This document shows positions 485 to 38,372 of a stretch of DNA of 44,293 nucleotides, one piece after another (the stretch's first letter is position 1; each line of letters starts with the position of its first letter). Source of the stretch: Agathobacter sp. (lineage in GTDB: Bacteria > Bacillota_I > Bacilli_A > RF39 > UBA660); assembly GCA_963628465.1 (NCBI GenBank), contig CAVGEW010000003.1:10634-54926 (forward strand), given 5' to 3'. The translations under genes were made by a program, and so were the position numbers. The notes under the pieces were generated by a model. It did not search any database. It worked only from the letters and a program-made list of their open reading frames with translations, and was not told the DNA's origin.

Positions 485-594
485 AAATTCGAAAGAAAAA
501 TATATGTTAAATAATTTTTCTATGAAAGAGGTGATGAATATCGAATAATTATCAGTAAAATAGCAAGTAAACTATTATGAGAAGGGAGGACAAT

Positions 595-1917
595 ATGAAT
601 AAAAAGATTATAGCTCTAATAGGTGCAATTATTGTTATTTTATGCGTAGTTGTGCTATTTGTAGTTGGAAAAAACGGGAAATATGAAGTTAAATTCAATT
701 CAAATGGTGGAACTATTGTCGAAGTACAAAAAATTAAAAAAGGACAAACTGCAACAAAACCAGTTGATCCGACAAAAGATGGATATGTATTCGATAATTG
801 GTATTTAAATGATGCAGTATATGACTTTAGTTCAAAGGTTACAAAAAACATAACTCTTGAAGCTAAGTGGATTAACGAAAGTGCGGATGCATATACTGTT
901 ACATTTGATACAAATGGTGGAAGTGAAATTTCATCTGTAAAAGTAACTGAAGGGAATAAAGTTACTAAACCAACAAGTCCTACAAAAGAAGGATATAAAT
1001 TTGTTGAGTGGTTACTAAATGGTAAAGCTTATGATTTTACTAAAGAAGTAACTGAAGATATAACTCTTGTTGCTAGTTGGGAAAAAACTGATAGTTCAGA
1101 GACTGTTAGTGTTACAAGCGTTACTGTAAGTAAAACAACATTAAGTTTAAATGTTGGTAGTACAAGTACATTAACTGTTACAATTAAACCAACTGATGCA
1201 ACAAATAAAACAGCTACTTGGAAAACAAGTAATGCAAAAGTAGCAACAGTTTCAAATGGAAAGGTTACTGCGGTAGGTGCTGGTACTGCAACAATTACAG
1301 TTACAGTAGATGGAAAATCTGCAACAACTAAAGTTACAGTAACTAAAGTAGAAACAAAACCAACAGAAACAAAACCAACAGAAACAAAACCAACAGAAAC
1401 AAAACCAACAGAAACAAAACCAACAGAAACAAAACCAACAGAAACAAAACCAACAGAAACAAAACCAACTGAAGTAAAAGTTACAAGTGTAACTTTAAGT
1501 AAAACATCTCTAGACTTAAAAGTTGGTGCAACATCAAGTTTAACTGCTACAATTAATCCAAGCAACGCAACAAATAAAACAGCTACTTGGAAATCAAATA
1601 ATACTAATGTAGCAACTGTTGATTCAAACGGAAAAGTAACTGCAGTAGGTGCTGGAGAAGCAACAATTACTGTTACTGTAGATGGTAAAACAGCAACAGC
1701 AAAAGTTACAGTAACTAAAAATGTTACTTACAACGTAGAAATGGTTGATGTAGGAGATGCTGGACAAGTTATACTTTATATTAAAAGTTCGGAAGGAAAC
1801 CGTGTTTCTGGAAAAATCAAAATTGTTACAATTGCTAACAAAGAAGGGACAGTTAACACTGGCACAGTTTTAGTGAAGAAAAATATTAAGTCAGCAACTG
1901 TTCTAAGTGTAGATTAA
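595..1917 (+). CDS. Membrane-anchored surface protein with 2 Listeria-Bacteroides (Flg_new) repeats, 2 Big_2 Ig-like domains and a TKPTE linker
   Basis: The ORF track starts at 577, but the ATG at 595 lies 5 nt after GGGAGG (584-589). There is an N-terminal TM/signal anchor (IIALIGAIIVILCVVVLFVV). Two Flg_new-type repeats are present (YEVKFNSNGG...GYVFDNWYLND..YDF and YTVTFDTNGG...GYKFVEWLLNGKAYDF). Two Big_2-like units are present (VTSVT.SKT.L.L.VG.T..LT.TI.P..ATNKTATWK..N..VATV...GKVTAVGAG.ATITVTVDGK.AT.KVTV). Confidence 0.85.
   Translation: MNKKIIALIGAIIVILCVVVLFVVGKNGKYEVKFNSNGGTIVEVQKIKKGQTATKPVDPTKDGYVFDNWYLNDAVYDFSSKVTKNITLEAKWINESADAYTVTFDTNGGSEISSVKVTEGNKVTKPTSPTKEGYKFVEWLLNGKAYDFTKEVTEDITLVASWEKTDSSETVSVTSVTVSKTTLSLNVGSTSTLTVTIKPTDATNKTATWKTSNAKVATVSNGKVTAVGAGTATITVTVDGKSATTKVTVTKVETKPTETKPTETKPTETKPTETKPTETKPTETKPTETKPTEVKVTSVTLSKTSLDLKVGATSSLTATINPSNATNKTATWKSNNTNVATVDSNGKVTAVGAGEATITVTVDGKTATAKVTVTKNVTYNVEMVDVGDAGQVILYIKSSEGNRVSGKIKIVTIANKEGTVNTGTVLVKKNIKSATVLSVD
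1351..1470 (+). repeat. 8 x 15-nt in-frame tandem repeat encoding (ETKPT)8
   Basis: GAAACAAAACCAACA occurs head to tail 8 times. Seven copies are identical and the last has one synonymous change (..CCAACT). The repeat lies between the two Big_2 domains. Confidence 0.95.
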
Positions 1918-1934
1918 AGAAAGGGAAGTTAGAA

Positions 1935-4922
1935 ATGAATAGAAAAGTTAGAAAAACATTTATAGGTGCATTTCTTGCTACTAGTTTATTTATGGGAGTT
2001 AACAGTGTTAGTGCTGTAACTATTAAAGAAACTATAGATGCAGAAAATGAAACTTTAGATAAAATTGCTGATAATACAACAATTATTGGTGCTACAAAAT
2101 TTGAACCAAATGTAGTTTTAACAGCAATGCGTATAGCAAAGGCTGCAACAAATGATGTATATTTAAATCTTGATAATCCAGATTATAATGGCGTAAAAAT
2201 TTATAACTATTTATTTGGTGATTGGTACGTATTAGATGAAGATAATAATACAAGAGTACTAGGACAAGACGAAGAATATCAAAAAGAAGATGAAATAACT
2301 CTTAACAAATTGAAAGAACAAGCAATTTACTATGTAAATAATGAAGAAAAAGTTTTAGACATTGAATATAGTAAAGACTTAGATGCAGGATATACTCTAG
2401 AATTTAGAGATGGCGATAAAAAATTAGATTTAGAATATACTGAAGATGGTATAATTAAAGTTCCAGCAACAGTTCAAAATGTTGAAATATATGCTGTAAA
2501 GAAAAATGGTGAAGAAACGGTTGAAACTAAATTAGATGAGTTCTCAAAAACATCAATGGATGCATCAGAATTTAAAACAATATCTTCTTTAGGCTCAATT
2601 ACTTATGGCGATGTAACTGCTAGTAATATTACAATTGATAAAATTGAATGGACTCAAGCAAAAGGTGAAAGTGCTTCAGGATATTATGCAACAGTTACAA
2701 TAAATGTACCAGAAGTTTATAAAAATGATTATAGTGGTGCAACATATTATATTGATGATAATGAAAAAGAACCTGTTAAATTAACAGAAGAAGCTTTATC
2801 TCAAAAATTAACATTTGATAAAGATCACGATAGCCATAAAATTACTGTTATATGGGCTGAAGGTAATACACAAGTATTTACAGTGAAAGTAGAAGAATTT
2901 GGTGCTGCTTTTGGTGGTACAATTAGTTATGGCAAAGATTCTAGTACTAGTGAATTAAATATTGGTACAGTTGAATGGTCTAATTCAAGTGAAACTATAG
3001 CAAATGGTACAGCTGGTTACTATGCAACAGTTACAATTAAAACTGAAGATTATATAGGAGCAAACCTTAATCAAGATACAAATGCAACATATTATATTGA
3101 TGAACTTGCTCAAGGGGTGCGTGCTACACAAATAACTGATGTTGAAACAGTTATTAATTTAAAATTTGATGCAAAAAATCTAAGTCACACAATAACTGTT
3201 GAATGGGAAAAAGGAAATATCCAAGTATTTAAAGTAACAGCTAATGGGTTAGCTACAATTCCAGCTGGCACAATAGCTAAAGATGAAGATACGTTAACTA
3301 AAAACTTTACATTTGATAGTAAAACTAATACAGCTACAATTAGTGGAGACATTAAATGGTATCAAACAGGGGAAACAGCTGATTATGGTTCCAAAACTGC
3401 TGAAGCTGGTAACTTTAAATCAGTTATAATTACAGCACCTGATGAATTTAGTAAATATACAAATGTTAGTGTTGTAGTTGATGAAAATCCTACTCCAATT
3501 GCTTGGAATGTTTCTGAAAACGGAAAAAATATTAATTTAGAACTAAACTTTACAAATAAAACATCTCATACAATTAAAGTTACTTGGGAAGAAGGAAATA
3601 TCCAAGAATTTATTGTTAAGCTTGATGAAAATGCAGTATTAGAAAAAGCTATCGCTGGTACAATAACTTATAATGAAACAACTGATGCAAGTAAAATAAC
3701 TATTGATGAAGTTAAATGGTATAATTCAAGTGAAACTATAGCAAAGGGTACAGCTGGTAACTATGCAACTGTTACAATTAATGTACCAACAGAATATCAA
3801 GTAAGTAAAGGTTCTGCTACAATTGAAAAAACACTAACGTTTGCAAAAGCTGAAAGTAAAACTATATCTATTGAATGGGAAAAAGGAAATATACAAGTTT
3901 TTACAGTTGAAGCCAAAAGCTTAGAAGCTGCTCCAGCTGGTACAATTGCTACTGAAGATTTAACTTTAGCAAATGGAAAACTAAGTGGAACAGTTAAATA
4001 TGTCAAAGACAGAGGTAATGTAATTTCTTATGTTATTACAGCACCAGATGCATACACAGATGATGATAGTTCTGCAGAAGCAACAATAACAATTACTAGC
4101 TATGGTAAAGATGAAACAGTAACAAATCTAAAAGATAAAGAATCAGTTACATTTAATAGTAGTAACAAAACATATGGATTTACACGTATTGTAAATGACA
4201 ACTTTGCTTATGATGAAATTACAATTGTATGGGAAAATGGAAATACTCAAGTTATAAAAGTTGTTGCTGATAACTTAAAACTTGAAGCAAAACCAAACTA
4301 TATAAAAACTCTTGAAATAGATGAAACAACTAATGCAATAATTGTTGGAAATGACTTACAACTTAGTGTTACAAAAACAGCTGAAGATGATTCAAAAGAT
4401 ATTACTAAACCAGAAGTTGAATGGACTTCAAGCGATAAAAATGTTGCAACAGTTGATGCAGAAGGCAAAGTTACTGCTGTTGGATTTGGTAGTGCTACAA
4501 TAACTGTTTCAGCAAAAGATGGTTCTGGTGTTACAGATACTTTTGAAATTACTGTAAAATATGCTCCAATTGTTGATAATACTACATGTTATAAACAAGG
4601 TGTAGATAATAAAAAAATTGTAACTATTAATTTTGCTGCTGAAGGTGGCGCTGATAAGAATAATTTTGTAACAAATGAAGATAAAGCATTTACTTATACT
4701 TACACAATTGAAAAGGATGGAGTAACAGTATCAGATCCTGATTTAGCTACTTTAGCTAGTTATAAAGATAATGTATTAACATTAACTGTTACTGATGATG
4801 CTAAATATGAAGTTAAATATAGTATTTCACAAGTAGTAACTTATGCTGATTCTCAAACTACTACAGTAGAACTAAAGGGTTTATCTAAAGTTGTTTTAGA
4901 AAGAAAAGTAGGAATGGAGTAG
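1935..4922 (+). CDS. Large secreted surface protein (995 aa) with five ~100-125-aa repeat modules plus one Big_2 domain
   Basis: Signal peptide MNRKVRKTFIGAFLATSLFMGVNSVSA. Module ends recur: HKITVIWAEGNTQVFTVKV, HTITVEWEKGNIQVFKVTA, HTIKVTWEEGNIQEFIVKL, KTISIEWEKGNIQVFTVEA and DEITIVWENGNTQVIKVVA. GYYATVTI-type motifs also recur. A Big_2-like unit is present (EVEWTSSDKNVATVDAEGKVTAVGFGSATITVSA). I saw no LPXTG or other anchor. Confidence 0.8.
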   Translation: MNRKVRKTFIGAFLATSLFMGVNSVSAVTIKETIDAENETLDKIADNTTIIGATKFEPNVVLTAMRIAKAATNDVYLNLDNPDYNGVKIYNYLFGDWYVLDEDNNTRVLGQDEEYQKEDEITLNKLKEQAIYYVNNEEKVLDIEYSKDLDAGYTLEFRDGDKKLDLEYTEDGIIKVPATVQNVEIYAVKKNGEETVETKLDEFSKTSMDASEFKTISSLGSITYGDVTASNITIDKIEWTQAKGESASGYYATVTINVPEVYKNDYSGATYYIDDNEKEPVKLTEEALSQKLTFDKDHDSHKITVIWAEGNTQVFTVKVEEFGAAFGGTISYGKDSSTSELNIGTVEWSNSSETIANGTAGYYATVTIKTEDYIGANLNQDTNATYYIDELAQGVRATQITDVETVINLKFDAKNLSHTITVEWEKGNIQVFKVTANGLATIPAGTIAKDEDTLTKNFTFDSKTNTATISGDIKWYQTGETADYGSKTAEAGNFKSVIITAPDEFSKYTNVSVVVDENPTPIAWNVSENGKNINLELNFTNKTSHTIKVTWEEGNIQEFIVKLDENAVLEKAIAGTITYNETTDASKITIDEVKWYNSSETIAKGTAGNYATVTINVPTEYQVSKGSATIEKTLTFAKAESKTISIEWEKGNIQVFTVEAKSLEAAPAGTIATEDLTLANGKLSGTVKYVKDRGNVISYVITAPDAYTDDDSSAEATITITSYGKDETVTNLKDKESVTFNSSNKTYGFTRIVNDNFAYDEITIVWENGNTQVIKVVADNLKLEAKPNYIKTLEIDETTNAIIVGNDLQLSVTKTAEDDSKDITKPEVEWTSSDKNVATVDAEGKVTAVGFGSATITVSAKDGSGVTDTFEITVKYAPIVDNTTCYKQGVDNKKIVTINFAAEGGADKNNFVTNEDKAFTYTYTIEKDGVTVSDPDLATLASYKDNVLTLTVTDDAKYEVKYSISQVVTYADSQTTTVELKGLSKVVLERKVGME
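2570..4270 (+). repeat. Array of five divergent intragenic repeat modules (protein level, partly visible at DNA level)
   Basis: Anchor motif W(E/A)(E/K/N)GN(I/T)Q(V/E)F at about nt 2834-2890, 3186-3242, 3567-3623, 3858-3914 and 4211-4267. Related DNA strings recur, e.g. gaatgggaaaaaggaaatatccaagtattt and gaatgggaaaaaggaaatatacaagttttt. Confidence 0.7.
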
Positions 4923-7363: not shown

Positions 7364-8998
7364 ATGAGTAAAATAAAGATTTTTGGTTTGGGAGGACTTT
7401 CCGAAAGTGGAAAAAATTCCTATGTTGTTGAAGTAGATGATGAAATATTCGTTTTTGATGCTGGTATTAAGTTTGCTAGCGGAAACCTATTAGGTATTGA
7501 TTACATTATGCCTGATTTTAGTTATCTTGTTAAGAATAAAAAAAGAATTAAGGGTTTATTTATAACTCATGGACACCCTGAAAATATGGGGGCGGTTTAT
7601 GATTTACTTAAAGATATTCATACTTTAAAGGTTTATGCAACAAAATATACTAAATTTGAGCTGATGGAAGATGGAGTTAAAGAAGCGAATATTGAACTTA
7701 TTAAGCCTCATAAGAAAATTAATTTTGGTAATGTTTCTATATTTCCAATTTCTGTATCCCATTCTGTGCCTGATGCAGTAATGTATGTTATAAATACTAA
7801 AGATGGAGCTATTTGTTATACTGGTGATTTTATTATTGACCCAAGTATGCAAGGGGTTTATGATATGGATTTAGGTAAAATAGCTTACATAGGTAAACAA
7901 GGGGTTTTATGCCTTTTGTGTGAATCATCTTTCGCAGAAAAGAGTGGACATACTTCACCAAAACATAGACTTGTTAGTTTCTTTGAAGATGTAATTAACC
8001 ATCATGACAAAAGATTAATATTTTCTGTTTTACCTACGCATTTGTATACAATCTCCGAAATATTTGAAGCTGCGGCTAATTCACATCGCAAAATAATCCT
8101 TATGGGAAAAAGATTACAAAACGTTCTTAATTTTGCTACTAGCGAAGGCTATATAAAGTACAATGAAGAATTACTTGGAGATTTATCAAATATTGAAGAT
8201 GAAGATTCAATATTGCTTGTCATGGATGATAGAACAACGCCATATGCAAACATGAATAAGATATTAAATGGCTATGATAAGTTTATTACCTTAAGACCTA
8301 CGGATACGGTAGTTTTTGCTGAACCTAGATATGATTCAACAGAAAAAGTTTTGGTAAGACTTCAAAATGAATTAGCAAAATTTGGTTGTGATATTGTAAC
8401 AATAGACAAAGACAAAGAAATATTACATCATGCATCTCGGGAAGATTTAATGCTTATGATAAAGTTAATTAACCCTAAGTTTTATATGCCTGTGAAGGGT
8501 GAATATAGATACATGGTAAATAATGCTAATCTAGCAAGTCATTTAGGTATTTTAGATAGTAATATTTTACTTAAACAAAATGGTGACGTTGTAACTTTTG
8601 AAAATGGTAAGTTATTAGATAATTTTGCTAAAGTTAAAGTAGATGATGTCTTGATAGATGGTACAAGCAATGATGATATTGGGGGTCTTGTTATCAAAGA
8701 TAGAGAAATGCTTTCTGAAAATGGTATAGTTTTAATTAGTGCAACAGTAGATAAAAAAGATAAAGTACTTTTAGTTGGACCTGAAGTTACTACTAGAGGA
8801 TTCATTTATGTTAAAGATTCTGCAGATATGATTAAAGAAATAAAAAGTATTTGTGAGGATATTATAAATAGAAATATAACCCCTAAATTTATAGATTTTA
8901 ATCAAATAAAAATCGAAATAAGAGAAGAATTAAGTCGATACTTATATGAACAAACAGAATGTAAACCAATGATTATTGCCGTTGTTCAAGAGGTATAA
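7364..8998 (+). CDS. rnj: Ribonuclease J family protein (metallo-beta-lactamase/beta-CASP) with degenerate metal-binding motifs
   Basis: 544 aa with the RNase J layout: IFGLGGLSE.GKN.YVVE, GLFITHGHPENMG (canonical HGHEDHIG), SHSVPDA, YTGDF, HHASREDL and MPVKGEYRY (canonical HGEYR). Confidence 0.8.
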   Translation: MSKIKIFGLGGLSESGKNSYVVEVDDEIFVFDAGIKFASGNLLGIDYIMPDFSYLVKNKKRIKGLFITHGHPENMGAVYDLLKDIHTLKVYATKYTKFELMEDGVKEANIELIKPHKKINFGNVSIFPISVSHSVPDAVMYVINTKDGAICYTGDFIIDPSMQGVYDMDLGKIAYIGKQGVLCLLCESSFAEKSGHTSPKHRLVSFFEDVINHHDKRLIFSVLPTHLYTISEIFEAAANSHRKIILMGKRLQNVLNFATSEGYIKYNEELLGDLSNIEDEDSILLVMDDRTTPYANMNKILNGYDKFITLRPTDTVVFAEPRYDSTEKVLVRLQNELAKFGCDIVTIDKDKEILHHASREDLMLMIKLINPKFYMPVKGEYRYMVNNANLASHLGILDSNILLKQNGDVVTFENGKLLDNFAKVKVDDVLIDGTSNDDIGGLVIKDREMLSENGIVLISATVDKKDKVLLVGPEVTTRGFIYVKDSADMIKEIKSICEDIINRNITPKFIDFNQIKIEIREELSRYLYEQTECKPMIIAVVQEV

Positions 8999-10926: not shown

Positions 10927-12069
10927 ATGAAGTATGAAACAATTTTAGAAATAGATTTAAAAAGATTAAAAAATAATATAAATAAACTAACTAGAAGTTT
11001 TTATGAATATAAAATAGTTATAGCAGATTTAAAAGATAATGCTCATAAAATGGGTTTTGGTATAGTAAATACTTTAGTAAGAAATGGTATTAACTATGTA
11101 CTGGTAGGTTCTTTAAAAGAAGCTCTAGAGGTTAGAAAACTAAATAAAGATGTAAATATTTTAGTAAGTTATAGTGTAACATTAGATGAAGTATATGATT
11201 GTATAAATAACAATATAACTATTACTATTCATAATAAAAAGTATATAGATTTACTAAGTAAACTAGATTTAAAAGATGATTTAAACTTAGAAATACTTAT
11301 TGATCAAGGTTCTAACTTGCAAGGTATAAGTAAAAAAAGTGATCTAGAATATATAATAAATAGGATTAAAGAACATAAACATCTTAAGCTAAAGGGGCTA
11401 TATTCACAGATTACTACTTTTGGCATTACAGATGAATACTACTATGAAGAAGTAAATAACTTTCTAAAGATAGTAAAACCTTTTATAAGTGATGATTTAA
11501 TTATTCATTTAAATGAGCCTATCATGCATCATAAAAAAATAAAGTATATTAATGGAATTAGATTTGATTTATCAATTCTTGGCATCGAAGAAAAGATAAA
11601 TGATGATATATTTACCAAAGGAAAAATAAAAAAAATAGAGAAAAAGTATGGTAATTTAAAGTGCTTAAGCACTAACTTAGAATTGATATTTAATATAACA
11701 AGTGAAGTAATGGAAATAAAAAAAGTTAACAAAGGAACTCTTGTGGGAAGGTCTTATCTTGCTAAAGAGGATATGTATGTAGCTTTACTTCCTATTGGGC
11801 ATAAAGATGGAATAACTAAGAGTATAAAGTATGTGGTAGTAAATAACAAGATTTGTGAAGTTTTATCTGATGATATAGATAAACTTTATATAAAAGTTGA
11901 TGAAAAAGTATTTATTAAAGATAAGGTATATATATTAAATGAAGAATTAGATATTTACAAGCTACTAGTTAATTTACATACAAATAGGTATTACTTGATG
12001 AGTATTTTAGATAGAAATTTAACTAAAAAGTATATAAATATACCAGATAATAATGATGATTTGTTGTAA
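10927..12069 (+). CDS. alr: Alanine racemase-like PLP enzyme (divergent)
   Basis: 380 aa. N-terminal IADLKDNAHKMGFG aligns with the PLP-lysine motif AVVKANAYGHG. LVGRSY...YVALLPIGHKDG aligns with the VGYG..Y...IA.VPIGYADG region, which contains the catalytic Tyr. Confidence 0.6.
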   Translation: MKYETILEIDLKRLKNNINKLTRSFYEYKIVIADLKDNAHKMGFGIVNTLVRNGINYVLVGSLKEALEVRKLNKDVNILVSYSVTLDEVYDCINNNITITIHNKKYIDLLSKLDLKDDLNLEILIDQGSNLQGISKKSDLEYIINRIKEHKHLKLKGLYSQITTFGITDEYYYEEVNNFLKIVKPFISDDLIIHLNEPIMHHKKIKYINGIRFDLSILGIEEKINDDIFTKGKIKKIEKKYGNLKCLSTNLELIFNITSEVMEIKKVNKGTLVGRSYLAKEDMYVALLPIGHKDGITKSIKYVVVNNKICEVLSDDIDKLYIKVDEKVFIKDKVYILNEELDIYKLLVNLHTNRYYLMSILDRNLTKKYINIPDNNDDLL

Positions 12070-12109
12070 AGAAATGTTTGATTGAAGAAAGAAAAAACTG
12101 AGTATTAAT

Positions 12110-12183
12110 CTAATATGGAAAAGATATTAAATTGATAGTGGATTAAAATTTTGAAAGGTTAGCTAAGTATTTTTTAGAAGAAT
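12110..12183 (+). pseudogene. Decayed 3'-terminal remnant of a fic-like gene
   Basis: 12152-12181 is identical to the last 30 nt of fic coding sequence before the final codons (14787-14816). Roughly 40 nt upstream still aligns with fic at reduced identity with indels (ATGgAAAAGaTATTaAATtGATAGTG vs ATGaAAAAGgtTATTtAATcGATAcGTG). No open frame remains. Confidence 0.45.
12152..12181 (+). repeat. 30-nt direct repeat, copy 1 (TGAAAGGTTAGCTAAGTATTTTTTAGAAGA)
   Basis: Exact match to 14787-14816. Confidence 0.9.
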
Positions 12184-12244
12184 TTTTTAATACTGTTCCA
12201 TTTAACTTTTCAATTAACACAAAGTCTTTTTATTGAAAAATAAC

Positions 12245-12273
12245 TTGACATTTTAAAAAATAAGGAATAAAAT
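12245..12273 (+). promoter_or_regulatory. Sigma-A-like promoter of the rSAM-peptide operon
   Basis: TTGACA (12245-12250), a 17-nt spacer, then TAAAAT (12268-12273). Confidence 0.5.
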
Positions 12274-12286
12274 ATAATCAAAATTT

Positions 12287-13855
12287 ATGAGCGAGGTTGT
12301 AATGACATTAGTATTTCCAAATTTAGAATTAAAAGAACAATATTATGATTTAGTAAAAAGTGCTTTAAAAAATGGTGATATATCTGAAATGGGTAATGCA
12401 TATCGTGAAAATGAAAAATATGAAGATATGTTAATTAGGTTAGAAAATCGCAGTAAAGGCATCAATATTTCAAGTAGGGATGTTCCTGCAACTGTACATT
12501 TTATATTAAATGAAAAAGGAAAAGTTGTAGGAACAATTGATATAAGGCATACTTTAAATGACAATTATTTCTCTAGACTAGGCCATATTGCATATTATAT
12601 AAAGTTTGAAGAAAGAAATAAAGGTTATGCAACCAAAGCTTTAAAATTAGCTCTTGAAAAGTTAAAGAATGAATATAAAGTAAATAAAGTTTTAATTACT
12701 TGTTTAAAAGATAACATTGCATCAAGAAAAGTAATTGAAGCAAATGGTGGAATTTTTGAAAAAGAATTTTATGATGAGATAACAAATAATTACATTCAGA
12801 GATTCTGGATAACCATAAACTATAATGAAATGGTTATCCCCAAAACGGTTTGGTTAACAACAAACATGAATTGTAATAATAATTGTAAATGGTGTTATGC
12901 CAAAAAATACATTAATTTTAAAAACAATATGTCATTTTCTAAAATATCAGATTACGTTTTGCAACTTAAAAAAATTGGAGTTAAAAAAATAATTTTAATT
13001 GGCGGTGAGCCAAGTATACATCCAGATATTTTGAAAATTATAAAATTTATTTCTGAAAATGAAATAGAAGTATCGATGGCAACAAACGGTAGAAAATTCA
13101 GCGATATTGAATTTGCAAAACAAGCCCAAAAAAACGGTTTAAAGAATGTTAATGTATCTATAAAAGGCACAAATGAACAAGAATATCTAAAAAATACTAA
13201 TAATAAAGGATTTGAAGAAGCATTACAAGGATATAAAAATCTTCAAAAATGTAATGTTAAAACGACACTATCTTATGTTTTATGTGATAGAAACTATGAT
13301 ACATTTGATAATTTTTGGGATTTAGTAAAAAAAGAAAATCTTAATAATATATTATTTCAACTTTATAAACCATCAGCAGATGACAAAAGTCTACCAATTT
13401 CGATTTTTGAGTTAGCTGATTTATGTAAATATGTTTACGATAAAATTTATAAAGAAGACAAAAATTTTGTTTTTGAAATGTCTATACCATTATGTGTATT
13501 GGACGAGAATATGCTAAATCATATGATGCTGAAAAATCGAATAATAACATGTTGTCATATATCTAAGGGAACAGGATTGATTTTTGATTCAAATTTTAAT
13601 AATATACCTTGCAACCATTTTATGGGACACCCATTAAATAAGTCTCAAATAAATCCGAACGATATTGTAGAATACTGGAATTCTTCAGAACCAAAAGAAT
13701 TTAGAAAAATTATTGGTAGATACCCATCAGAAATATGCTCAAGATGTAAAAAATGGTATCAATGTGGTGGCGGTTGCTCTATTAGATGGTTATCTACAGA
13801 TCCAGCCAAAATTATAAATGATAAATATGTTTATGATAAGGAGGTGACAAAATGA
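12287..13855 (+). CDS. Fusion protein: N-terminal GNAT acetyltransferase domain plus radical SAM/SPASM peptide-maturase-like domain
   Basis: GNAT part (aa 1-~180): IRHTLND and the AcCoA motif RNKGYA (R/Q-x-x-G-x-G/A); it is a paralogue of the ORF at 30342..30887. rSAM part: CNNNCKWC (C196/C200/C203), GGEP (aa 239-242), and SPASM cysteines CC(422-423)...C442 plus CSRCKKWYQCGGGC (CX2CX5CX3C, aa 484-497). The start may be the ATG at 12302, 5 nt after GAGG. Confidence 0.85.
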   Translation: MSEVVMTLVFPNLELKEQYYDLVKSALKNGDISEMGNAYRENEKYEDMLIRLENRSKGINISSRDVPATVHFILNEKGKVVGTIDIRHTLNDNYFSRLGHIAYYIKFEERNKGYATKALKLALEKLKNEYKVNKVLITCLKDNIASRKVIEANGGIFEKEFYDEITNNYIQRFWITINYNEMVIPKTVWLTTNMNCNNNCKWCYAKKYINFKNNMSFSKISDYVLQLKKIGVKKIILIGGEPSIHPDILKIIKFISENEIEVSMATNGRKFSDIEFAKQAQKNGLKNVNVSIKGTNEQEYLKNTNNKGFEEALQGYKNLQKCNVKTTLSYVLCDRNYDTFDNFWDLVKKENLNNILFQLYKPSADDKSLPISIFELADLCKYVYDKIYKEDKNFVFEMSIPLCVLDENMLNHMMLKNRIITCCHISKGTGLIFDSNFNNIPCNHFMGHPLNKSQINPNDIVEYWNSSEPKEFRKIIGRYPSEICSRCKKWYQCGGGCSIRWLSTDPAKIINDKYVYDKEVTK

Positions 13856-13998
13856 ACGCTTTAGAATTACTAAAACAAAATATTAATAATTCAGGAATAG
13901 ATGCAGTAGAAACTATTGGTATATCAACACCAAAAGCTAATAATTTAGATTGTGATTGCGTTAATGGTGATTGTTCTACTGGCGGTTATGAATATTAG
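13852..13998 (+). CDS. 48-aa Cys-rich peptide, candidate RiPP precursor (absent from the ORF track)
   Basis: The ATG overlaps the rSAM TGA stop (ATGA at 13852-13855). AAGGAGGTGA lies at 13838-13847. Translation: MNALELLKQNINNSGIDAVETIGISTPKANNLDCDCVNGDCSTGGYEY, ending at a TAG stop at 13996-13998. A hairpin and T-run lie downstream. Confidence 0.7.
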   Translation: MNALELLKQNINNSGIDAVETIGISTPKANNLDCDCVNGDCSTGGYEY

Positions 13999-14008
13999 TT
14001 TTATCAGT

Positions 14009-14032
14009 AAAAAGGATATAAAGTCCTTTTTT
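14009..14032 (+). terminator. Weak AT-rich intrinsic terminator after the peptide gene
   Basis: Stem AAAAAGGA (14009-14016) / TCCTTTTT (14024-14031) with a 7-nt loop; the T-run continues. Confidence 0.4.
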
Positions 14033-14085
14033 ATTGTCCTCTTTTATATATTTTGATAAAATAATTTTAAGAATGTGGTGGTTTT

Positions 14086-14820
14086 ATGTATGTACAAAAA
14101 ATAAAAAAATCTTTATTAATGCAAAATAAATTAAATTTAAAAGGCAACTTATATCATAAAACTCAAATTGATTTTGCTTATAACAATAACCGTTTAGAAG
14201 GGTCAACCATAACTAGTGATGAAACAGAAAGCATCTATGATACTGGAACAATTTTAACAAATAAAGATAAAGTAATAAATTTAAAAGATGCAACTGAAAC
14301 AAAAAATCATTTTACATTATTTAAATTTATGCTTGATACTTTAGATGAACCATTAACGGAAGATTTAATTAAAAAATATCATTTTATTTTAAAAAGTGGA
14401 ACCCTTAAAGATGATGAAGTTGGAATAATAAATATCGGTGAATATAAAAGCCTTAAAAATTTTGTTGGAAACATAACTACATCATTACCTAAGAATGTCC
14501 CAGCTGATATGAAAAAATTACTAGATTGGTACAATAAAATAGATAATAAAACTGTTAAAGATATTATAGAATTTCATGTAAGGTTTGAAAAAATTCATCC
14601 TTTTCAAGATGGCAATGGTAGAGTAGGCAGAATGATTATTTTTAGGGAATGTTTAGTAAATAATATAATGCCATTTTATATTGAAGAAAGAAATAAACCT
14701 TTTTATATCAGAGGAATAAAAGAGTATCAAACAAATAATGAAAAAGGTTATTTAATCGATACGTGCTTAAATAGTCAAGATAATTATGAAAGGTTAGCTA
14801 AGTATTTTTTAGAAGATTAA
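14086..14820 (+). CDS. fic: Fic family protein (AMPylation-type Fic motif)
   Basis: HPFQDGNGRVGR (aa 171-182, nt 14596-14631) matches HxFx(D/E)GNGRxxR. The N-terminal NNRLEG (aa 34-39) resembles the inhibitory (S/T)xxxE(G/N) helix and retains the Glu. Confidence 0.85.
   Translation: MYVQKIKKSLLMQNKLNLKGNLYHKTQIDFAYNNNRLEGSTITSDETESIYDTGTILTNKDKVINLKDATETKNHFTLFKFMLDTLDEPLTEDLIKKYHFILKSGTLKDDEVGIINIGEYKSLKNFVGNITTSLPKNVPADMKKLLDWYNKIDNKTVKDIIEFHVRFEKIHPFQDGNGRVGRMIIFRECLVNNIMPFYIEERNKPFYIRGIKEYQTNNEKGYLIDTCLNSQDNYERLAKYFLED
14787..14816 (+). repeat. 30-nt direct repeat, copy 2 (inside the fic 3' end)
   Basis: Exact match to 12152-12181. Confidence 0.9.
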
Positions 14821-14826
14821 TTTAAT

Positions 14827-14858
14827 GTTTAGATAATGAAAAAATCTAAACTTTTTTT
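14827..14858 (+). terminator. Intrinsic terminator after fic
   Basis: GTTTAGAT (14827-14834) / ATCTAAAC (14844-14851) followed by TTTTTTT. Confidence 0.7.
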
Positions 14859-14888
14859 CTTAAAATTAGGTTAAAATCGAGATTAAAG

Positions 14889-14918
14889 TTGATTTTTTTG
14901 TTGATTCCCTGTTATAAT
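14889..14918 (+). promoter_or_regulatory. Sigma-A-like promoter of parEC
   Basis: TTGATT (14889-14894), an 18-nt spacer, then TATAAT (14913-14918). Confidence 0.45.
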
Positions 14919-14928
14919 GGTCTAGGAA

Positions 14929-16848
14929 GTGATAAGGAATATGGCAAATTATGATGAGTCATCGATTAAAATTCTTGAAGGTCTAGAAGCAGTTCGAAAA
15001 AGACCAGGGATGTATATTGGATCAACTGATAAAAGAGGTATGCATCATTTAGTTTGGGAAATTGTGGATAATGCCATAGACGAAGTAATAAATGGATATG
15101 GCAATTATATTAAAGTAATTATAAATAAAGATAAAAGTATAACAGTAGCGGATAATGGTCGGGGAGTTCCAATTGGAATGCATGCATCTGGAAAAAGTAC
15201 ACCGGAAGTTATATACACAATACTTCATGCGGGTGGAAAGTTTAGTGAGGCAGGTTACAAAGTTTCCGGAGGTCTTCATGGTGTTGGGGCTAGCGTAGTT
15301 AATGCATTATCAAAAGAAATGCAAGTAGTTATTTATCGTGATGGTCTTATTTCATCAATTGAATTTGAAAATGGAGGGCATGTTAAAACGCCACTTCATA
15401 CCGTTGGTAAAAGTACAAAAACAGGAACAATAGTTAAGTTTTTGCCAGATGATACAATATTTAAAAATTGTAATTTTTCCTATACCACAATTTGTGAAAG
15501 AATGCAAGAATCTGCTTTTTTACTAAGTGGGCTTACTATTGAGGTCATTGATGAAGAAGATGGACATCAAGCTAAATTCCATTATGAAAATGGTTTAACA
15601 AGTTTTATAGATTACATGAACGAAGGCAAAAATACTTTACATAAAGTAATTAGTTTTGGTAATACGAAAAATAAAATTGAAGTTGATATTGCGATGCAAT
15701 ACACTGATACTTATAATGAAAATATATTATCTTTTGTAAATAATGTTAAAACTGTAGATGGTGGAACTCATGAAGTTGGTTTTAAAACGGGAATTACTAA
15801 AGCTTTTAATGATTACGCTAAAAGCAACAACATTTTTAAGGCCAAAGATGGTTCTTTAGATGGTTCTGATGTTCGGGAAGGTTTATCAGCAATTATTAGT
15901 TTAAAAATTCCGGAAGAACTCTTGCAGTTTGAAGGGCAAACTAAGGGTAAACTTGGTACGCCTGAGGCTCGTAGTGTTACTGAAAGTATAACTTATGAAT
16001 CATTAAAGTTTTTTCTTGAAGAAAATAAAGAAGTAGCATCAACTATCTTAGAAAAAGCTATGAAAAGTAAAGTTGCTAGAGAAGCTGCGAGAAAGGCACG
16101 TGAAGATGCTAGAAATGGTAAAAATAAAGGTAAGATTGAAAAGAATTTATCCATGAAATTAGCTCCAGCCCAAAGTAAGAATCCAAAGATTAATGAGTTA
16201 TTCATTGTCGAAGGAGATTCGGCCGGTGGTTCGGCGAAAGGTGGAAGAGATCGAAAATTCCAAGCAATACTTCCTCTTCGAGGTAAAGTAATAAATAGTG
16301 AAAAAGCATCCTTAGATGATTTAATTAAAAATGAAGAAATAAACACTTTAATACACACCATTGGCGCGGGTATTGGCCAAGATTTTGAGGCTTCAGAATC
16401 TAATTATGATAAAGTTATAATTATGACCGATGCCGATGTAGATGGTGCCCATATTCAAATACTACTGCTTACATTTTTCTATCGTTATATGCGGGGCTTA
16501 ATTGAAAATGGCAAGCTTTATATTGCCATGCCACCATTATATAAATTAGATTATGGTAAGAAGAAATTCTATGCATATAGTGATGATGAATTAAATGAAA
16601 TAAAGCTAAATAATACGGGAAAATATAGTATTCAAAGATATAAAGGTCTTGGGGAAATGAACCCAGACCAACTTTGGGAAACAACAATGGATCCGGAAAC
16701 AAGAAGTTTAATTAGAGTTAAAATAAATGATGCCGCACTTGCGGAAAAGCGAGTTCAAGTTTTGATGGGGGATAAGGTAGAACCCCGTAAGGAATGGATA
16801 AATGAAAATGTTGAATTCACCCTTGAAGATAATTACAGGGGAGTATAG
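14929..16848 (+). CDS. parE: DNA topoisomerase IV subunit B
   Basis: Type IIA topoisomerase ATPase and TOPRIM motifs are present: ILEGLEAVRKRPGMYIG, HHLVWEIVDNAIDE, GGLHGVGASVVNALS, EGDSAGGSAK, PLRGK(V)IN and IMTDADVDGAHI. It is called ParE rather than GyrB because the partner is ParC-like. The start may be the ATG at 14941. Confidence 0.8.
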   Translation: MIRNMANYDESSIKILEGLEAVRKRPGMYIGSTDKRGMHHLVWEIVDNAIDEVINGYGNYIKVIINKDKSITVADNGRGVPIGMHASGKSTPEVIYTILHAGGKFSEAGYKVSGGLHGVGASVVNALSKEMQVVIYRDGLISSIEFENGGHVKTPLHTVGKSTKTGTIVKFLPDDTIFKNCNFSYTTICERMQESAFLLSGLTIEVIDEEDGHQAKFHYENGLTSFIDYMNEGKNTLHKVISFGNTKNKIEVDIAMQYTDTYNENILSFVNNVKTVDGGTHEVGFKTGITKAFNDYAKSNNIFKAKDGSLDGSDVREGLSAIISLKIPEELLQFEGQTKGKLGTPEARSVTESITYESLKFFLEENKEVASTILEKAMKSKVAREAARKAREDARNGKNKGKIEKNLSMKLAPAQSKNPKINELFIVEGDSAGGSAKGGRDRKFQAILPLRGKVINSEKASLDDLIKNEEINTLIHTIGAGIGQDFEASESNYDKVIIMTDADVDGAHIQILLLTFFYRYMRGLIENGKLYIAMPPLYKLDYGKKKFYAYSDDELNEIKLNNTGKYSIQRYKGLGEMNPDQLWETTMDPETRSLIRVKINDAALAEKRVQVLMGDKVEPRKEWINENVEFTLEDNYRGV

Positions 16849-16858
16849 GGAGGTTTAA

Positions 16859-19348
16859 ATGGATAATATAGTAAAAAAAATTGAAGATTATAGTCTTGAA
16901 GAAATAATGTCAATAAGATTTGCCTCTTATGCTAAAGAAATTATACAAGATAGAGCTATCCCAGATGTTAGAGATGGACTTAAACCAGTACAAAGAAGAA
17001 TTCTTTATGCGATGTATAAAGCTGGCAATACCGCTGAAAAAGGATATATTAAGTGTGCGGCAACTGTCGGAGATGTTTTAGGTAAATTTCACCCTCATGG
17101 CGATTCATCTGTTTATGAAGCAATGGTTCGTATGTCTCAGTGGTGGAAGCAAAATCACATTTTAGTAGATATTCATGGTAATAATGGTTCCATGGATGGC
17201 GATGGACCCGCAGCTTATCGTTATACTGAAGCAAGACTATCTAAGATAAGTGGGGAACTTTTAAAAGATTTAGATAAATCAACTGTAGCGTGGTCTCCAA
17301 ACTTTGATGATAGGTTTTTAGAACCCACGGTACTTCCTGCGAAGTTTCCTAACTTACTGGTTAATGGCACAAATGGTATATCTGCGGGATATGCAACAAA
17401 TATACCACCTCATAACCTTGGGGAAGTAATTGATGCTACTATAAAGAGAATTGATTCACCTAATTGTTATCTAGATACAATCTTAGAAATAGTGAAAGGG
17501 CCAGACTTTCCAACTGGTGGTATAGCTTTTGGTAAACAAGGTATAATTGATGCTTTTAGAACTGGCCGAGGCCGAGTAATTGTTCAAGCTAAATATGAAT
17601 TTGTGAAAGAAAAAGGTAAAGAACAAATAATTATTACGGAAATACCTTTCGAAGTAAACAAACAAGCTTGTGTTGCCAAAATTGAAGGTCTTCGCATTGA
17701 TAAAAAAATCGAAGGTATATCTGAGGTTCGTGATGAGACAGATCGAACAGGTATAAGAATAGCTATTGACCTAAAACCAAATGCTAATAAAGATGTAATA
17801 ATGAAATTCTTATTTAAAAATACTGATTTGCAAATAAGTTATAACTATAATAGTGTGGCTATTGTCAACAGAACTCCAAAAACTTTAGGTATTTTGGAAA
17901 TCTTAGATGCTTACATTGCCCATAAACGTGAAGTTATTACCAAAAGAACAGAATTTGACCTAGCATATTACACTAAAAACTATAATATAGCAACAGGCTT
18001 AATTAAAGCTATATCTATCTTAGATGAAGTAATTGCTTTAATCAGAGCTAGTAAAAACAAAAGTGATGCCAAGGTTAATTTAATTAATAAATATAGCTTC
18101 ACCGAAGAACAAGCTGAAGCTATTGTAACACTTCAACTTTATAGATTGACAAATACTGATATTGTGGTTCTTGAGGAAGAATGTGAAAAACTAAAGGGTC
18201 TAATCGAAGAATGTAATAAAATTTTAAATGATGAAAATGAACTAAAAAATGTTATGAAATCAGAACTTAGGGAAATAAAGAAAAACTATGCAACTCCAAG
18301 AAAGACAGAAATTAGAGATGAAATCGTTGATATTAAGGTAGATGTAAAGGAAATGATACCTGATGAAAATGTAGTTGTCGTAGTAACAAATGATGGTTAT
18401 GTAAAAAGGGTAAGTACTAAAAGTTTTAAAACTAGTGAAGAAGAAACTACTTTAAAACCTGGAGACTTTGTAACTGCAAAATACTTAACATCTACAAGAA
18501 GTAATTTACTTTTATTTACGAATCTTGGTAATTATTTGTTTGTACCTGTTCATATCTTACCTGAAACAAAATGGAAAGACTTAGGTAAACATATAAGTAA
18601 TACTATTATGATAAAAGAAAATGAAAGAATTGTATCTTCTTTAATAATGAAAGATTTAGATAAAAATGTCTCTCTATTTACAAAAAATGGCCTTGTTAAA
18701 CAAGTACCTTTAAAAGATTTTGAAGTAACTAGATATTCTAAACCAATGATGGCTATAAAACTAAAAGATGGTGATGAGTTAATTAGTGCAGATATTTCTA
18801 AAGAAGAAGTTTTATTTGTAACTAATAATGGATTATCTTTAAGATTTGCCACTAGCGAAATTCCTGTTGTAGGACCTAAAGCAAGTGGAGTTAAGGGTAT
18901 TAACTTAAAAGATGATTATGTTGTTTTAGGGAGCCCTATAAACGAAGAAGAATATTTAAATGTCTTTACTAATTTTAAAACAATTAAAAGATTAAAATTA
19001 TCTGATATAACTAGTATATCAAGAGCTAAGAAAGGCAATATGCTATTTAAAAAAGCAAAGACTAAAGATTATAAAATAAGCTATGCTTATTTAACAAGTA
19101 CTAAAGATATAAATATATACAAAGATGGAACAGACTTCCACGAAATAAAAAATAGTGATATACCTATCATGGATACTTCGTCAACGGGAAGTGCTGTTAA
19201 ATATAATTATGATTTATTTACTTTAAAAAAAGAGTTAATAGATTTAACTAGGAAAAGTGAAGTAAACGAAGAAGAAACTTTAGAAAAACCAAATCAAAAA
19301 GAAGAACAATTGTCTTTTGCATCTTTCATAGATGATTTTAAGATATGA
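16859..19348 (+). CDS. parC: DNA topoisomerase IV subunit A
   Basis: RAIPDVRDGLKPVQRRILYAM, HPHGDSSVYEAMVRMSQ and AYRYTEARL (active-site Tyr). The CTD has PETKWKDLGKHISN (B. subtilis ParC-like RWKDLGQHI). I saw no GyrA-box QRRGGKG. Confidence 0.8.
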   Translation: MDNIVKKIEDYSLEEIMSIRFASYAKEIIQDRAIPDVRDGLKPVQRRILYAMYKAGNTAEKGYIKCAATVGDVLGKFHPHGDSSVYEAMVRMSQWWKQNHILVDIHGNNGSMDGDGPAAYRYTEARLSKISGELLKDLDKSTVAWSPNFDDRFLEPTVLPAKFPNLLVNGTNGISAGYATNIPPHNLGEVIDATIKRIDSPNCYLDTILEIVKGPDFPTGGIAFGKQGIIDAFRTGRGRVIVQAKYEFVKEKGKEQIIITEIPFEVNKQACVAKIEGLRIDKKIEGISEVRDETDRTGIRIAIDLKPNANKDVIMKFLFKNTDLQISYNYNSVAIVNRTPKTLGILEILDAYIAHKREVITKRTEFDLAYYTKNYNIATGLIKAISILDEVIALIRASKNKSDAKVNLINKYSFTEEQAEAIVTLQLYRLTNTDIVVLEEECEKLKGLIEECNKILNDENELKNVMKSELREIKKNYATPRKTEIRDEIVDIKVDVKEMIPDENVVVVVTNDGYVKRVSTKSFKTSEEETTLKPGDFVTAKYLTSTRSNLLLFTNLGNYLFVPVHILPETKWKDLGKHISNTIMIKENERIVSSLIMKDLDKNVSLFTKNGLVKQVPLKDFEVTRYSKPMMAIKLKDGDELISADISKEEVLFVTNNGLSLRFATSEIPVVGPKASGVKGINLKDDYVVLGSPINEEEYLNVFTNFKTIKRLKLSDITSISRAKKGNMLFKKAKTKDYKISYAYLTSTKDINIYKDGTDFHEIKNSDIPIMDTSSTGSAVKYNYDLFTLKKELIDLTRKSEVNEEETLEKPNQKEEQLSFASFIDDFKI

Positions 19349-37700: not shown

Positions 37701-38024
37701 ATGTATAGCGATCGATTATATTTGACTGCTCAAGAAATACTTGAGAAAGAATTTAAAGTTGATGCCAGGGGATATCGACCTCAAGAAGTTGATAAGTTTT
37801 TGGATATGGTTATCCGTGATTATACGGAATATGGTAATATTATCAAAAAGTTAGAAAAAGATGTAAAAGATTTAACTGATGATAATATTAAATTAAAGCA
37901 AGAAATTCGTAGACTTCAAGAAGTTGCTAGTACGAGCGAAGCGCCTTCGAGAAGTATTAATAATGTTGATTTATTAAAAAGAATAAGTCAACTTGAAAAA
38001 GTAGTTTATGGAAATAATGAATAA
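37701..38024 (+). CDS. gpsB: Cell-cycle protein GpsB (DivIVA-domain)
   Basis: LTAQEILEKEFKVDARGYRPQEVDKFLDMVIRDY plus a coiled coil. The track start at 37620 lies upstream of the promoter, so the ATG at 37701 is preferred. Confidence 0.85.
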   Translation: MYSDRLYLTAQEILEKEFKVDARGYRPQEVDKFLDMVIRDYTEYGNIIKKLEKDVKDLTDDNIKLKQEIRRLQEVASTSEAPSRSINNVDLLKRISQLEKVVYGNNE

Positions 38025-38372
38025 TCTAGTGGCAAATGCTGCATAAAATAGTTATGTAGAGGAAAGTCCATGCTCGCACAGACTGAGATGTCTGTAAGTG
38101 TTTGTGCTTAGGGAAAAAATAACCTAAGGTAGCGTAAGCTAACGGCTTCGAGGAAACCTTAAATGGTTTTATTAGATGTAAAAGTGCCAAAGAGACGAGC
38201 TGCATTGGAAACTTTGCAGGTGGAACGTGGTAAACCCCGCAAGCGAGAAACCCAAATTATGGTAGGGGAGTTTAAAATAGAGAAATGAATCTATTTTAGG
38301 TGCCTGTTGGTAAGATAAATATTTGCCTCTTTCTTAGGAAAGAACAGAACATGGCTTATTCAGGTTATTTAT
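38025..38372 (+). ncRNA. rnpB: RNase P RNA, bacterial type B
   Basis: GAGGAAAGTCCATGCTCGCAC (from 38059), GGAACGTGGTAAACCCCGCAAGCGAGAAACCCAAAT and ACAGAACATGGCTTAT (38344-38359) match the conserved Bacillus-type RNase P RNA core. It lies directly downstream of gpsB, as in B. subtilis. The ends are approximate, within about 10 nt. Confidence 0.88.

Follow-up and report, generated by a model that had tools for sequence, protein, structure and literature searches.

A radical SAM/SPASM enzyme fused to a GNAT domain and its adjoining Cys- and Asp-rich peptide: a putative RiPP-type operon of uncultured gut Bacilli

An enzyme gene and an overlapping peptide gene

Peptides modified by radical S-adenosylmethionine (SAM) enzymes with a SPASM domain are, as a kind, well known. 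Here we describe a locus that would belong with them, found in a 44,293-nucleotide stretch of contig CAVGEW010000003.1 (assembly GCA_963628465.1, Agathobacter sp., positions 10,634 to 54,926 of the forward strand). This stretch we call the window. Two genes make up the locus: the first encodes an enzyme in which a GNAT domain precedes a radical SAM/SPASM protein; the second, overlapping its end, encodes a peptide of 48 amino acids (Table 1). An original prediction, made from the DNA letters, saw in this pair a candidate system for a peptide made by ribosomes and modified after translation (RiPP). The pair has what is expected of a RiPP precursor and its maturase: a short open reading frame (ORF) with a conserved leader and a variable core adjoins the enzyme gene.

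What kind of enzyme is encoded? The Pfam model Radical_SAM (PF04055) matches the protein at E 2e-25, with 90.3 bits against a cut-off of 29.5, and so places it in that superfamily. The 522-codon ORF, the motif CNNNCKWC (aa 196-203) and the GGEP motif are exactly as predicted; among 84 enzyme sequences, C200, C203 and G239-E241 are invariant and C196 is conserved in at least 90%. The predicted SPASM-type pattern is also in place, with CC at aa 422-423, a Cys at aa 442 and CSRCKKWYQCGGGC (CX2CX5CX3C) at aa 484-497. On aa 381-522 the NCBIfam SPASM model TIGR04085 reaches 36.7 bits, above its cut-off of 27. Of the domain models that the original prediction expected to match, only the Pfam SPASM model PF13186 stays below its threshold (15 bits against 21.5). 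Seven Cys of this region, not eight, are conserved (C403, C423, C442, C484, C487, C493 and C497), and no eighth Cys is present beyond C497. The N-terminal domain passes two acetyltransferase models, Acetyltransf_3 (PF13302, 45.9 bits against 25.4) and Acetyltransf_1 (PF00583, 35.6 against 20.7). The true start of the gene is likely ATG 12302 (Met6), giving 517 amino acids, because GAGG lies 5 nucleotides upstream and the homologues begin there.

An AlphaFold2 (AF2) model of the fusion (predicted local distance difference test, pLDDT, 93.6; predicted template modelling score, pTM, 0.81) agrees with this division. Its secondary structure shows a GNAT fold up to aa 176, joined by about 10 residues to the radical SAM strand at aa 187-191. 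A domain scan of the fusion protein gave no match to a PqqD-like RiPP recognition element (RRE), and the unfused homologues begin fewer than 10 residues ahead of the first strand of the radical SAM core. Nor does a conserved neighbour gene in Bacilli or Clostridia place the enzyme among RRE-dependent maturases. Domain scans and model thus agree with the predicted N-terminal GNAT and missing RRE, and they support an enzyme of the radical SAM/SPASM peptide-maturase type that carries a GNAT domain and no RRE.

The peptide gene was likewise predicted exactly, in its sequence, in the Shine-Dalgarno sequence ahead of it and in the ATGA at 13852-13855 through which the TGA of the enzyme gene overlaps the ATG of the peptide gene. 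The junction of enzyme end and peptide start, ..GG[DEN]K-M, recurs at homologous loci. In the DNA of this window a 48-codon ATG ORF is not above chance by its length (67 ATG ORFs of at least 48 codons, against about 24 in mononucleotide shuffles). Since such ORFs are common by chance, the case for a small gene rests on conservation and not on length.

That conservation is extensive. Of 76 related loci, 69 have a homologous peptide gene beside that of the enzyme and on its strand. Its place is mostly directly downstream, often overlapping or less than 100 nt away; all DPANN loci, and some others, have it directly upstream. When all loci and the window were scanned in six frames with a hidden Markov model (HMM) of the leader, only enzyme-adjacent ORFs were found (E 1e-11 to 1e-4), the 48-aa ORF of the window among them at E 6e-9. 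The leader consensus is M..L..LL..Y.GT...AP[IV]A.G[VIL], of which the window clade has a degenerate form, LELLKQNINNSGIDAVETIG. Leaders are 2% Cys; cores are 27% Cys and 24% Asp. Of 70 cores, 66 contain CxC, 58 contain CxCx2-5C and 58 contain C-x3-[DE]. Bacilli precursors have a single copy of the unit [DN]C[DNH]Cxx[GSDP][DN]C and one Clostridia precursor group has three; in the form DC[DNH]Cxx[GS]DC it is found from gut Bacilli to Pacearchaeota, and DCDCxxGDCS is common to the window (DCDCVNGDCS), a Woesearchaeota locus (L055, DCDCHGGDCS) and a Pacearchaeota locus (L057, DCDCYSGDCS). Leader HMM and family alignment therefore agree with the predicted division into a leader and a Cys/Asp core.

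The window peptide ends in YEY, and in its clade the core DC[DN]CV[DN][GS]DCST..YE. is conserved, including the C-terminal Tyr-Glu (Y46-E47). The YE motif is specific to this clade and the Cys/Asp unit is family-wide. The expectation of an ORF always immediately downstream, with a shared core and a C-terminal Tyr, was thus borne out for the adjoining gene and the core unit; the gene is sometimes upstream, and the Tyr belongs to one clade.

Might the ORF nonetheless be fortuitous, the enzyme acting on something else? The frequency of such lengths in AT-rich DNA is what this idea has in its favour. Set against it are a position, strand, leader and core conserved across phyla, a strong Shine-Dalgarno sequence with the ATGA overlap, and the pattern of codon change. 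Between the window and a related locus (L001) the peptide gene shows 11 synonymous and 3 non-synonymous changes, a ratio of non-synonymous to synonymous rates (dN/dS) of 0.05; other pairs give 0.07-0.44. The comparison points to a real gene under purifying selection. Together with the leader scan it effectively refutes a chance ORF, to which we assign almost no probability.

Table 1. Features of the locus in window coordinates; L numbers are our handles for related loci.
Feature	Position	Strand	Remarks
Sigma-70-like promoter, TTGACA-17-TAAAAT	12245..12273	+	best promoter-like site within 12000-14200; 11/12 matches
GNAT-radical SAM/SPASM fusion gene	12287..13855	+	522 aa from ATG 12287
GNAT domain, aa 1-176	12287..12813	+	PF13302 and PF00583 over cut-offs
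Strain-variable segment, 2,007 bp: radical SAM/SPASM part, peptide gene, Fic gene	12814..14820	+	missing from near-conspecific L083, L084, L085
Radical SAM core, aa 195-343	12869..13315	+	PF04055; CX3CX2C at 12872-12895; GGEP at aa 239-242
SPASM auxiliary-cluster region	13493..13798	+	TIGR04085; seven conserved Cys
Shine-Dalgarno AAGGAGGTGA of peptide gene	13838..13847	+	within last codons of enzyme gene
Precursor peptide gene, 48 aa	13852..13998	+	leader about aa 1-31 (13852-13944); core LDCDCVNGDCSTGGYEY, aa 32-48 (13945-13995)
A/U-rich hairpin and U-run, weak candidate intrinsic terminator	14005..14036	+	folds at -10.9 kcal/mol (z = -2.5)
Gene for a Fic-domain protein of 244 aa with the motif HPFQDGNGRVGR	14086..14820	+	inside strain-variable segment

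Distribution of the enzyme and peptide families

The homologue search spanned 5.8 billion proteins and an exhaustive search 1.84 billion cluster representatives. About 30 full-length fused homologues (protein clusters) of 500-530 aa were found, at 50-68% identity, with many further homologues of about 335 aa that correspond to the radical SAM/SPASM part alone. The exhaustive search returned 200 proteins at E <= 1e-30, nearly all of 330-360 aa and matched end to end; at this threshold the enzyme family comprises about 200 clusters at 50% identity. The loci come from uncultured Bacilli of the gut ('Clostridium sp.' CAG:594 and CAG:710 among them), Clostridia, Bacteroidales, Patescibacteria (the Candidate Phyla Radiation, CPR), Woesearchaeota, Pacearchaeota and Nanoarchaeota. 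Enzyme and peptide thus co-occur across Bacilli, Clostridia, Bacteroidales, CPR bacteria and DPANN archaea.

Two sets of divergent relatives were seen. Four long proteins (P0173, P0242, P0246 and P0254; 940-1318 aa) match the radical SAM/SPASM query in three separate stretches and may be multi-domain or tandem radical SAM fusions related to the family. In the other set (P0053, at L082 4001-5560, and P0075) the GNAT domain is intact, the radical SAM part lacks CX3CX2C and some SPASM Cys, and a C-terminal extension has been gained. The neighbours of these pseudo-radical SAM genes are an alanine racemase and an ATP-grasp gene, and no peptide gene lies downstream at L082.

Has the system been described before? 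The sole NCBI name among the listed enzyme matches is the generic 'radical SAM protein', and none of the 25 NCBIfam models that best match the window protein reaches its cut-off as a family model. Ten diverse precursors scanned against Pfam and NCBIfam at E <= 10 gave no match, and the SCIFF models do not match the peptide. When the protein collection was searched with a profile, no more than 26 called members of the peptide family came up, all unnamed or 'hypothetical protein'; among them is P0130, with 98% identity to the peptide of the window. The gene called hidden in the original prediction is therefore absent from curated models, but near-identical ORFs had been called in public data. 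That the architecture matches no described RiPP class held up: in Pfam and NCBIfam models, source names and the searchable literature we found no description of the peptide, the enzyme family or the GNAT fusion. The same is true of the leader/core family, the lack of an RRE and the spread over CPR, DPANN and gut Bacilli.

Clustering of all ORFs across the loci revealed a single recurrent neighbour, an HExxH protein (GHEIMHLY) of about 170-225 aa that directly follows the enzyme or peptide gene in 22 CPR/DPANN loci (for example, L032 5022-5681). Pfam, NCBIfam and PDB sequence searches returned no relative of it; a leader peptidase of these loci is our guess. In Bacilli and Clostridia no other neighbour is conserved and the contexts of the cassette are unrelated. 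As predicted, neither a leader protease nor an exporter lies near the cassette in the window, and none is linked to it in the Bacilli or Clostridia loci. In four related Clostridia loci (L016, 5465-6319; L017; L022; L023), whose precursors carry three CHC[SG]SDDC repeats, a putative heavy-metal exporter of the ArsP_2 type adjoins the peptide gene on the opposite strand.

Gain and loss of the cassette and the place of the GNAT domain

The edges of the cassette can be drawn by comparing the window with its closest relatives. DNA homology (blastn) begins at 12244 for L001 and at 12221-12227 for L083, L085 and L081, so that the promoter forms the left edge of the mobile module. The promoter named in the original prediction is the best site of the region, but such sites are frequent in this 28% G+C DNA (23 observed against 17.6 expected). 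On the right, the predicted hairpin with its T-run is present but weak: a terminator scan called no site there, and the A/U-rich stem misses the criteria of the tool. The match to L001 (3958-5809 against window 12244-14110, 84%) stops past the hairpin. L001 shares this interval alone, in an otherwise different context; the stretch from promoter to hairpin, with the fusion and peptide genes between them, thus behaves as a single module of about 1.87 kb.

Near-conspecific strains lack part of it. L083 matches the window on both sides of the strain-variable segment, with 3442-4027 at 95.2% to window 12227-12813 and 4030-7534 at 87.3% to window 14821-18327 (the gyrB-like flank), so the segment is one that is present or absent between close strains. 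At the junction (L083 4027-4030) a stand-alone GNAT of 177 aa ends in ...RFWITF*, and the gene order in L083-L085 is ABC transporter, GNAT, gyrB-like, gyrA-like.

Elsewhere the cassette is in decay. Some GNAT genes called as stand-alone are in fact broken fusions, with the peptide ORF intact in both cases seen: L001, and L086, a long-read contig with many frameshifts. Genuine stand-alone GNAT genes are those of L083, L087 and L089; L010 and L047 are decayed loci. In L001 (4016-5563), the closest full relative at 84% DNA identity, a single in-frame TGA at the codon of invariant Trp189 (near 4559-4561) breaks the fusion gene. The split product, P0008, is present on 19 contigs, and the peptide gene is intact and under strong purifying selection. 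Genetic code 4 was rejected as an explanation, other L001 genes being intact under code 11; read-through, a functional split and a recent pseudogene are all possible. We have withdrawn L001 as a natural split of GNAT from radical SAM on account of its single stop codon; L011 and L024 stand as independent cases of separate genes. By these comparisons the cassette is accessory, often gained or lost, with the GNAT tending to survive. Presence or absence between close strains, with frequent decay, would suit a peptide of competition or signalling rather than of housekeeping.

What does the GNAT domain do? Its acetyl-CoA motif RNKGYA (aa 110-115) is intact, with R110 invariant and G113 and A115 conserved in at least 90%, and it is modelled with a pLDDT of 94.9; it belongs to the GNAT family, and from its sequence catalysis is predicted. 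In Foldseek searches YdaF (1nsl), SpeG, MccE (3r95/3r96) and RimL (1s7n) match about equally (E ~1e-7; template modelling (TM) score ~0.65), a likeness that places it in the amine-acetylating group of GNATs without saying which member it resembles. The domain occurs with the peptide system in three arrangements: as an N-terminal fusion (window, L002-L009), as separate genes in the order radical SAM, GNAT, peptide (L011), and in the order radical SAM, peptide, GNAT (L024, where the GNAT is frameshifted). These gene orders support a link between the GNAT and the peptide system. Its most likely task is to acetylate a primary amine, either on the peptide or on a processed form of it, as tailoring or as self-protection.

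Microcin C offers a precedent. There MccE joins a RimL-like GNAT to a biosynthetic domain of a ribosomal-peptide pathway, and this GNAT provides self-immunity by acetylating a primary amine on the processed product (PMC9239234). The case differs in that the partner of the GNAT in MccE is not a radical SAM enzyme, and the sequence similarity is marginal (E 0.08). Immunity is a serious option for the GNAT because of the strain pattern and this precedent.

The GNAT may instead have no part in tailoring: it could be a detoxifying or immunity acetyltransferase that strains retain as orphan immunity once the producer genes are gone, or an unrelated resident gene whose 3' end serves as a landing site for radical SAM-peptide cassettes. 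The near-conspecific strain keeps the GNAT alone and at higher identity than the gyrB-like flank (95% against 87%). Stand-alone proteins of 170-180 aa with this domain are also common; one of them, that of L083-L085, is 97% identical to the window domain. In a neighbour-joining tree the fused GNATs are interspersed among stand-alone ones (at least 8 sister pairs). One stand-alone homologue (P0324; L087 846-5368, and L088) has as its neighbours Peptidase_S66, Peptidase_S51 and another Acetyltransf_3 GNAT, and members of the S51 and S66 (MccF) peptidase families, like the GNAT MccE, confer microcin C immunity (PMC9239234). Another (P0319; L091 3001-5712, and L092) is directly followed by a 44-aa ORF (MKKVQLKNDIVKNLKTKLSDQKIKISFGNKIGLGYDGCGTHTHK) and an unrelated 528-aa radical SAM/SPASM gene, a second kind of peptide cassette beside this GNAT family; in the tree its nearest GNAT belongs to the fused protein P0018. 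MccE is, moreover, among the best structural matches. But its likeness is no better than that of SpeG or RimL, the in-frame fusion has been kept in about 30 clusters that share 50-68% identity, and the two further gene orders tie the GNAT specifically to the peptide system. A GNAT without a tailoring role is, on this evidence, a real possibility that falls short of probable.

A further joint involves the same domain: at L081 (4001-5473, P0047) a GNAT 96% identical to that of the window over aa 1-161 has, in place of the radical SAM part, a Wzy_C-like membrane domain. Either a third structural variant at the locus or an assembly chimera would account for it.

Could the two domains of the fusion act in a single reaction? 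Among natural fusions of a radical SAM with a GNAT/KAT (lysine acetyltransferase) domain Elp3 alone is well known; it uses acetyl-CoA to make 5-carboxymethyluridine (cm5U) (PMC13315578). By analogy, radical-activated acetyl-CoA might donate an acetyl-derived carbon to the peptide, for example as a carboxymethyl group, and the pTM of the fusion model suggests a fixed arrangement of the two domains. Elp3, however, has the opposite domain order (N-terminal radical SAM, C-terminal KAT), no SPASM domain and a tRNA substrate. No Elp3 model is among the 25 best NCBIfam matches, and in L011 and L024 the GNAT has a gene of its own. Above all, such coupling is unlikely because most family members (in Clostridia, CPR and DPANN) pair with the same type of core and have no GNAT. 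We think it very improbable.

The surroundings of the cassette in the window are genes for RNase J, a UvrD-like helicase, an alanine-racemase-like protein, the Fic protein and gyrB/gyrA-like proteins. The Fic gene has a promoter-like site of its own (14034..14062) and is not kept with the peptide system at other loci. The divergent alanine-racemase-like gene (10927..12069) scores 104.6 bits with TIGR00492 against a cut-off of 168, and its pyridoxal phosphate (PLP)-Lys motif is LKDNAHKMG where VKANAYGHG is usual; judged by these features it may not be a standard Alr. A functional tie of the cassette to this gene was considered, as L082 has such a gene near its GNAT-pseudo-radical SAM gene, and rejected: the two share 32% identity and the association is not conserved elsewhere. 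Farther away (577..4922), two large ORFs of 446 and 995 aa with Listeria-Bacteroides repeat and Big_2 domains probably encode surface proteins, to judge by these domains. The window has 27.9% G+C, and its bacterial RNase P RNA (38023..38363) is of the Firmicutes type (class B, 262 bits), in keeping with an origin in the Bacillota; no tRNA genes were found across it. Five of its 33 large ORFs end in TGA, which is therefore a stop codon here.

Proposed chemistry and meaning

On balance we favour, as rather probable, the following account. The region would be a self-contained RiPP-type operon of one promoter, an enzyme gene and a translationally coupled gene for a 48-aa precursor. In this operon an RRE-less radical SAM/SPASM enzyme would mature the peptide, probably by crosslinking Cys, with thioethers to Asp the most plausible product and the GNAT as a tailoring or detoxifying activity. 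The enzyme would bind the leader directly, with no RRE. Cleavage of SAM would yield a 5'-deoxyadenosyl radical that takes a hydrogen atom from a core residue, and the resulting core carbon would bond to a Cys sulfur held at the auxiliary cluster. One to three intramolecular thioether rings would result, each at a cost of 2 Da, the link most plausibly running from Cys to the beta-carbon of Asp as in ranthipeptides; C36-X3-D40 is one candidate pair. The RimL/MccE-like GNAT fused to the enzyme in this lineage would most likely acetylate a primary amine of the peptide or of the processed product.

The choice of Asp as acceptor follows from the prevalence of Cys and Asp in the cores, the frequency of C-x3-D, and two precedents. 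PapB joins Cys sulfur to the beta-carbon of Asp in CX3D motifs and accepts Cys-to-Asp spacings of 0 to 6 residues (PMC9413430). SPASM domains with seven Cys are reported for the thioether formers QhpD, CteB and Tte1186 (PMC10352776).

Several findings weigh against this account. The case for thioethers is weak: the type of modification is read from core composition and from what SPASM enzymes do in general. In some cores of the family Asp is all but missing (FCQGQCPCKCVCQCDCVCK in L027, for example), so Asp is not a universal acceptor. By its model scores the enzyme falls outside every characterised maturase family; the PapB-family model NF047865 gives 59-72 bits against 340 on the unfused relatives L012, L023 and L032, and is not among the 25 best NCBIfam matches of the window protein. 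Its closest folds, SuiB and anSME, perform C-C crosslinking and Cys oxidation, not thioether formation. The lack of a linked protease or exporter in the window, Bacilli and Clostridia loci counts against it as well, and so does the wide occurrence of stand-alone GNATs without any radical SAM enzyme, whose role may not concern the peptide.

How does the pair compare with known systems? PapB/PapA (freyrasin), the ranthipeptides and QhpD/QhpC share with it a radical SAM/SPASM enzyme that acts on a Cys/Asp-rich core, and the length of the PapB model (330 positions) is close to that of the unfused family members. Their leader family is unrelated, and those systems have no RRE and no GNAT; the thioether established for PapB (PMC9413430) is here putative. 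The SCIFF/CteB system (thermocellin) of Clostridia is likewise a two-gene cassette of peptide and radical SAM/SPASM enzyme, widespread in anaerobes, with no linked protease or exporter, and the family profile matches CteB (5wgg) over its full length at 2e-14. CteB has an N-terminal RRE. This, and another precursor motif, set the SCIFF system apart.

The same partners may perform other chemistry, such as oxidation of Cys to formylglycine, epimerisation, or C-C or C-O links, for example through Tyr-Glu. The structural comparisons lend this some support. SuiB, a C-C crosslinker, is the best match both of the family profile against the PDB (1e-20 over the full length, through SPASM; SkfB 2e-20, anSME 1e-10) and of the AF2 model in Foldseek (2e-14; then BlsE, anSME, MoaA, SkfB and PqqE). 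The best compact structural match is anSME (root-mean-square deviation 4.2-4.6 A, TM 0.66), which is RRE-less like the family and acts on Cys in a peptide, and the fused clade conserves the pair Y46-E47. Each model system differs, however. SuiB (of the SuiB/StrB, or streptide, type) carries an RRE and links Lys to Trp through a C-C bond. The targets of anSME are sulfatases, in which it oxidises Cys or Ser, and no small precursor is dedicated to it; the family here has a small peptide and no sulfatase. The recognition motif of anSME is C/S-x-P/A-x-R, and it is missing from the peptide. Although SuiB and anSME are the best structural and profile matches, NCBIfam models stay far below their cut-offs; that for anSME (TIGR03942) scores 48.8 bits on the window protein and 49-64 with relatives included, against 349. 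The feature common to the whole family is the CxC...C unit and not Tyr or Glu, and it is for thioether formers that seven-Cys SPASM domains are reported (PMC10352776). We therefore regard a different chemistry as unlikely.

The original prediction had also pointed to Tyr-based precedents, PqqE and MftC. These analogies are weaker than the Cys-based ones because YE is clade-specific and the Cys/Asp unit family-wide; Tyr-based chemistry is, from the alignment, less likely than crosslinking through Cys. Mycofactocin in particular calls for a C-terminal Val-Tyr in MftA and for MftB beside MftC; here the peptide ends in YEY and there is no MftB-like neighbour. The MftC model TIGR03962 scores 58.9 bits on the window protein (59-79 with relatives) against a cut-off of 265.

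The product might also remain in the cell, as a metal-binding peptide or a cofactor precursor like those of pyrroloquinoline quinone (PQQ) or mycofactocin, rather than leave it as an antimicrobial or signal. The want of a linked exporter or leader protease in Bacilli and Clostridia would be explained. The cores, with their high content of Cys and Asp, resemble metal-binding clusters of these residues, the system is kept in the very small genomes of CPR and DPANN organisms, and the ArsP_2 exporter adjoins the peptide gene in four Clostridia loci. That link, though, is limited to close relatives. Presence or absence between strains and decay (L010, L047, L083, L086) speak against a place in core metabolism, no further cofactor-processing enzymes are present, and the MftC model stays far below its cut-off. 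An intracellular role of this kind seems doubtful to us, about as much so as the other chemistries.

More far-reaching is the idea of a new RiPP class, in which an ancient radical SAM/SPASM enzyme, directed by a leader whose recognition needs no RRE, would make a compact multi-ring or metal-binding structure from the DCDCxxGDC unit that is kept from DPANN archaea and CPR bacteria to Bacilli of the human gut. The crosslink would be undescribed in type or topology, and producers among the gut Bacilli would have an acetyltransferase built in, which non-producers retain as orphan immunity. We offer this tentatively, as conceivable but on the unlikely side.

If the favoured account of an RRE-less maturation operon is true, these loci would represent an uncatalogued family of radical SAM/SPASM peptides with about 200 enzyme clusters at 50% identity. 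As the RRE is what most genome-mining tools depend on, a family without one would mark a blind spot in RiPP discovery. With an enzyme of only about 335 aa apart from the GNAT and a simple two-gene context, heterologous reconstitution should be straightforward. A single core motif would be common to the ultra-small symbionts of the CPR and DPANN and to abundant uncultured Bacilli of the human gut, organisms for which, to our knowledge, almost no natural products are known. In the gut, the GNAT fusion, the presence or absence of the cassette between strains and the GNAT that stays behind alone would together make a testable model of producers and immune non-producers.

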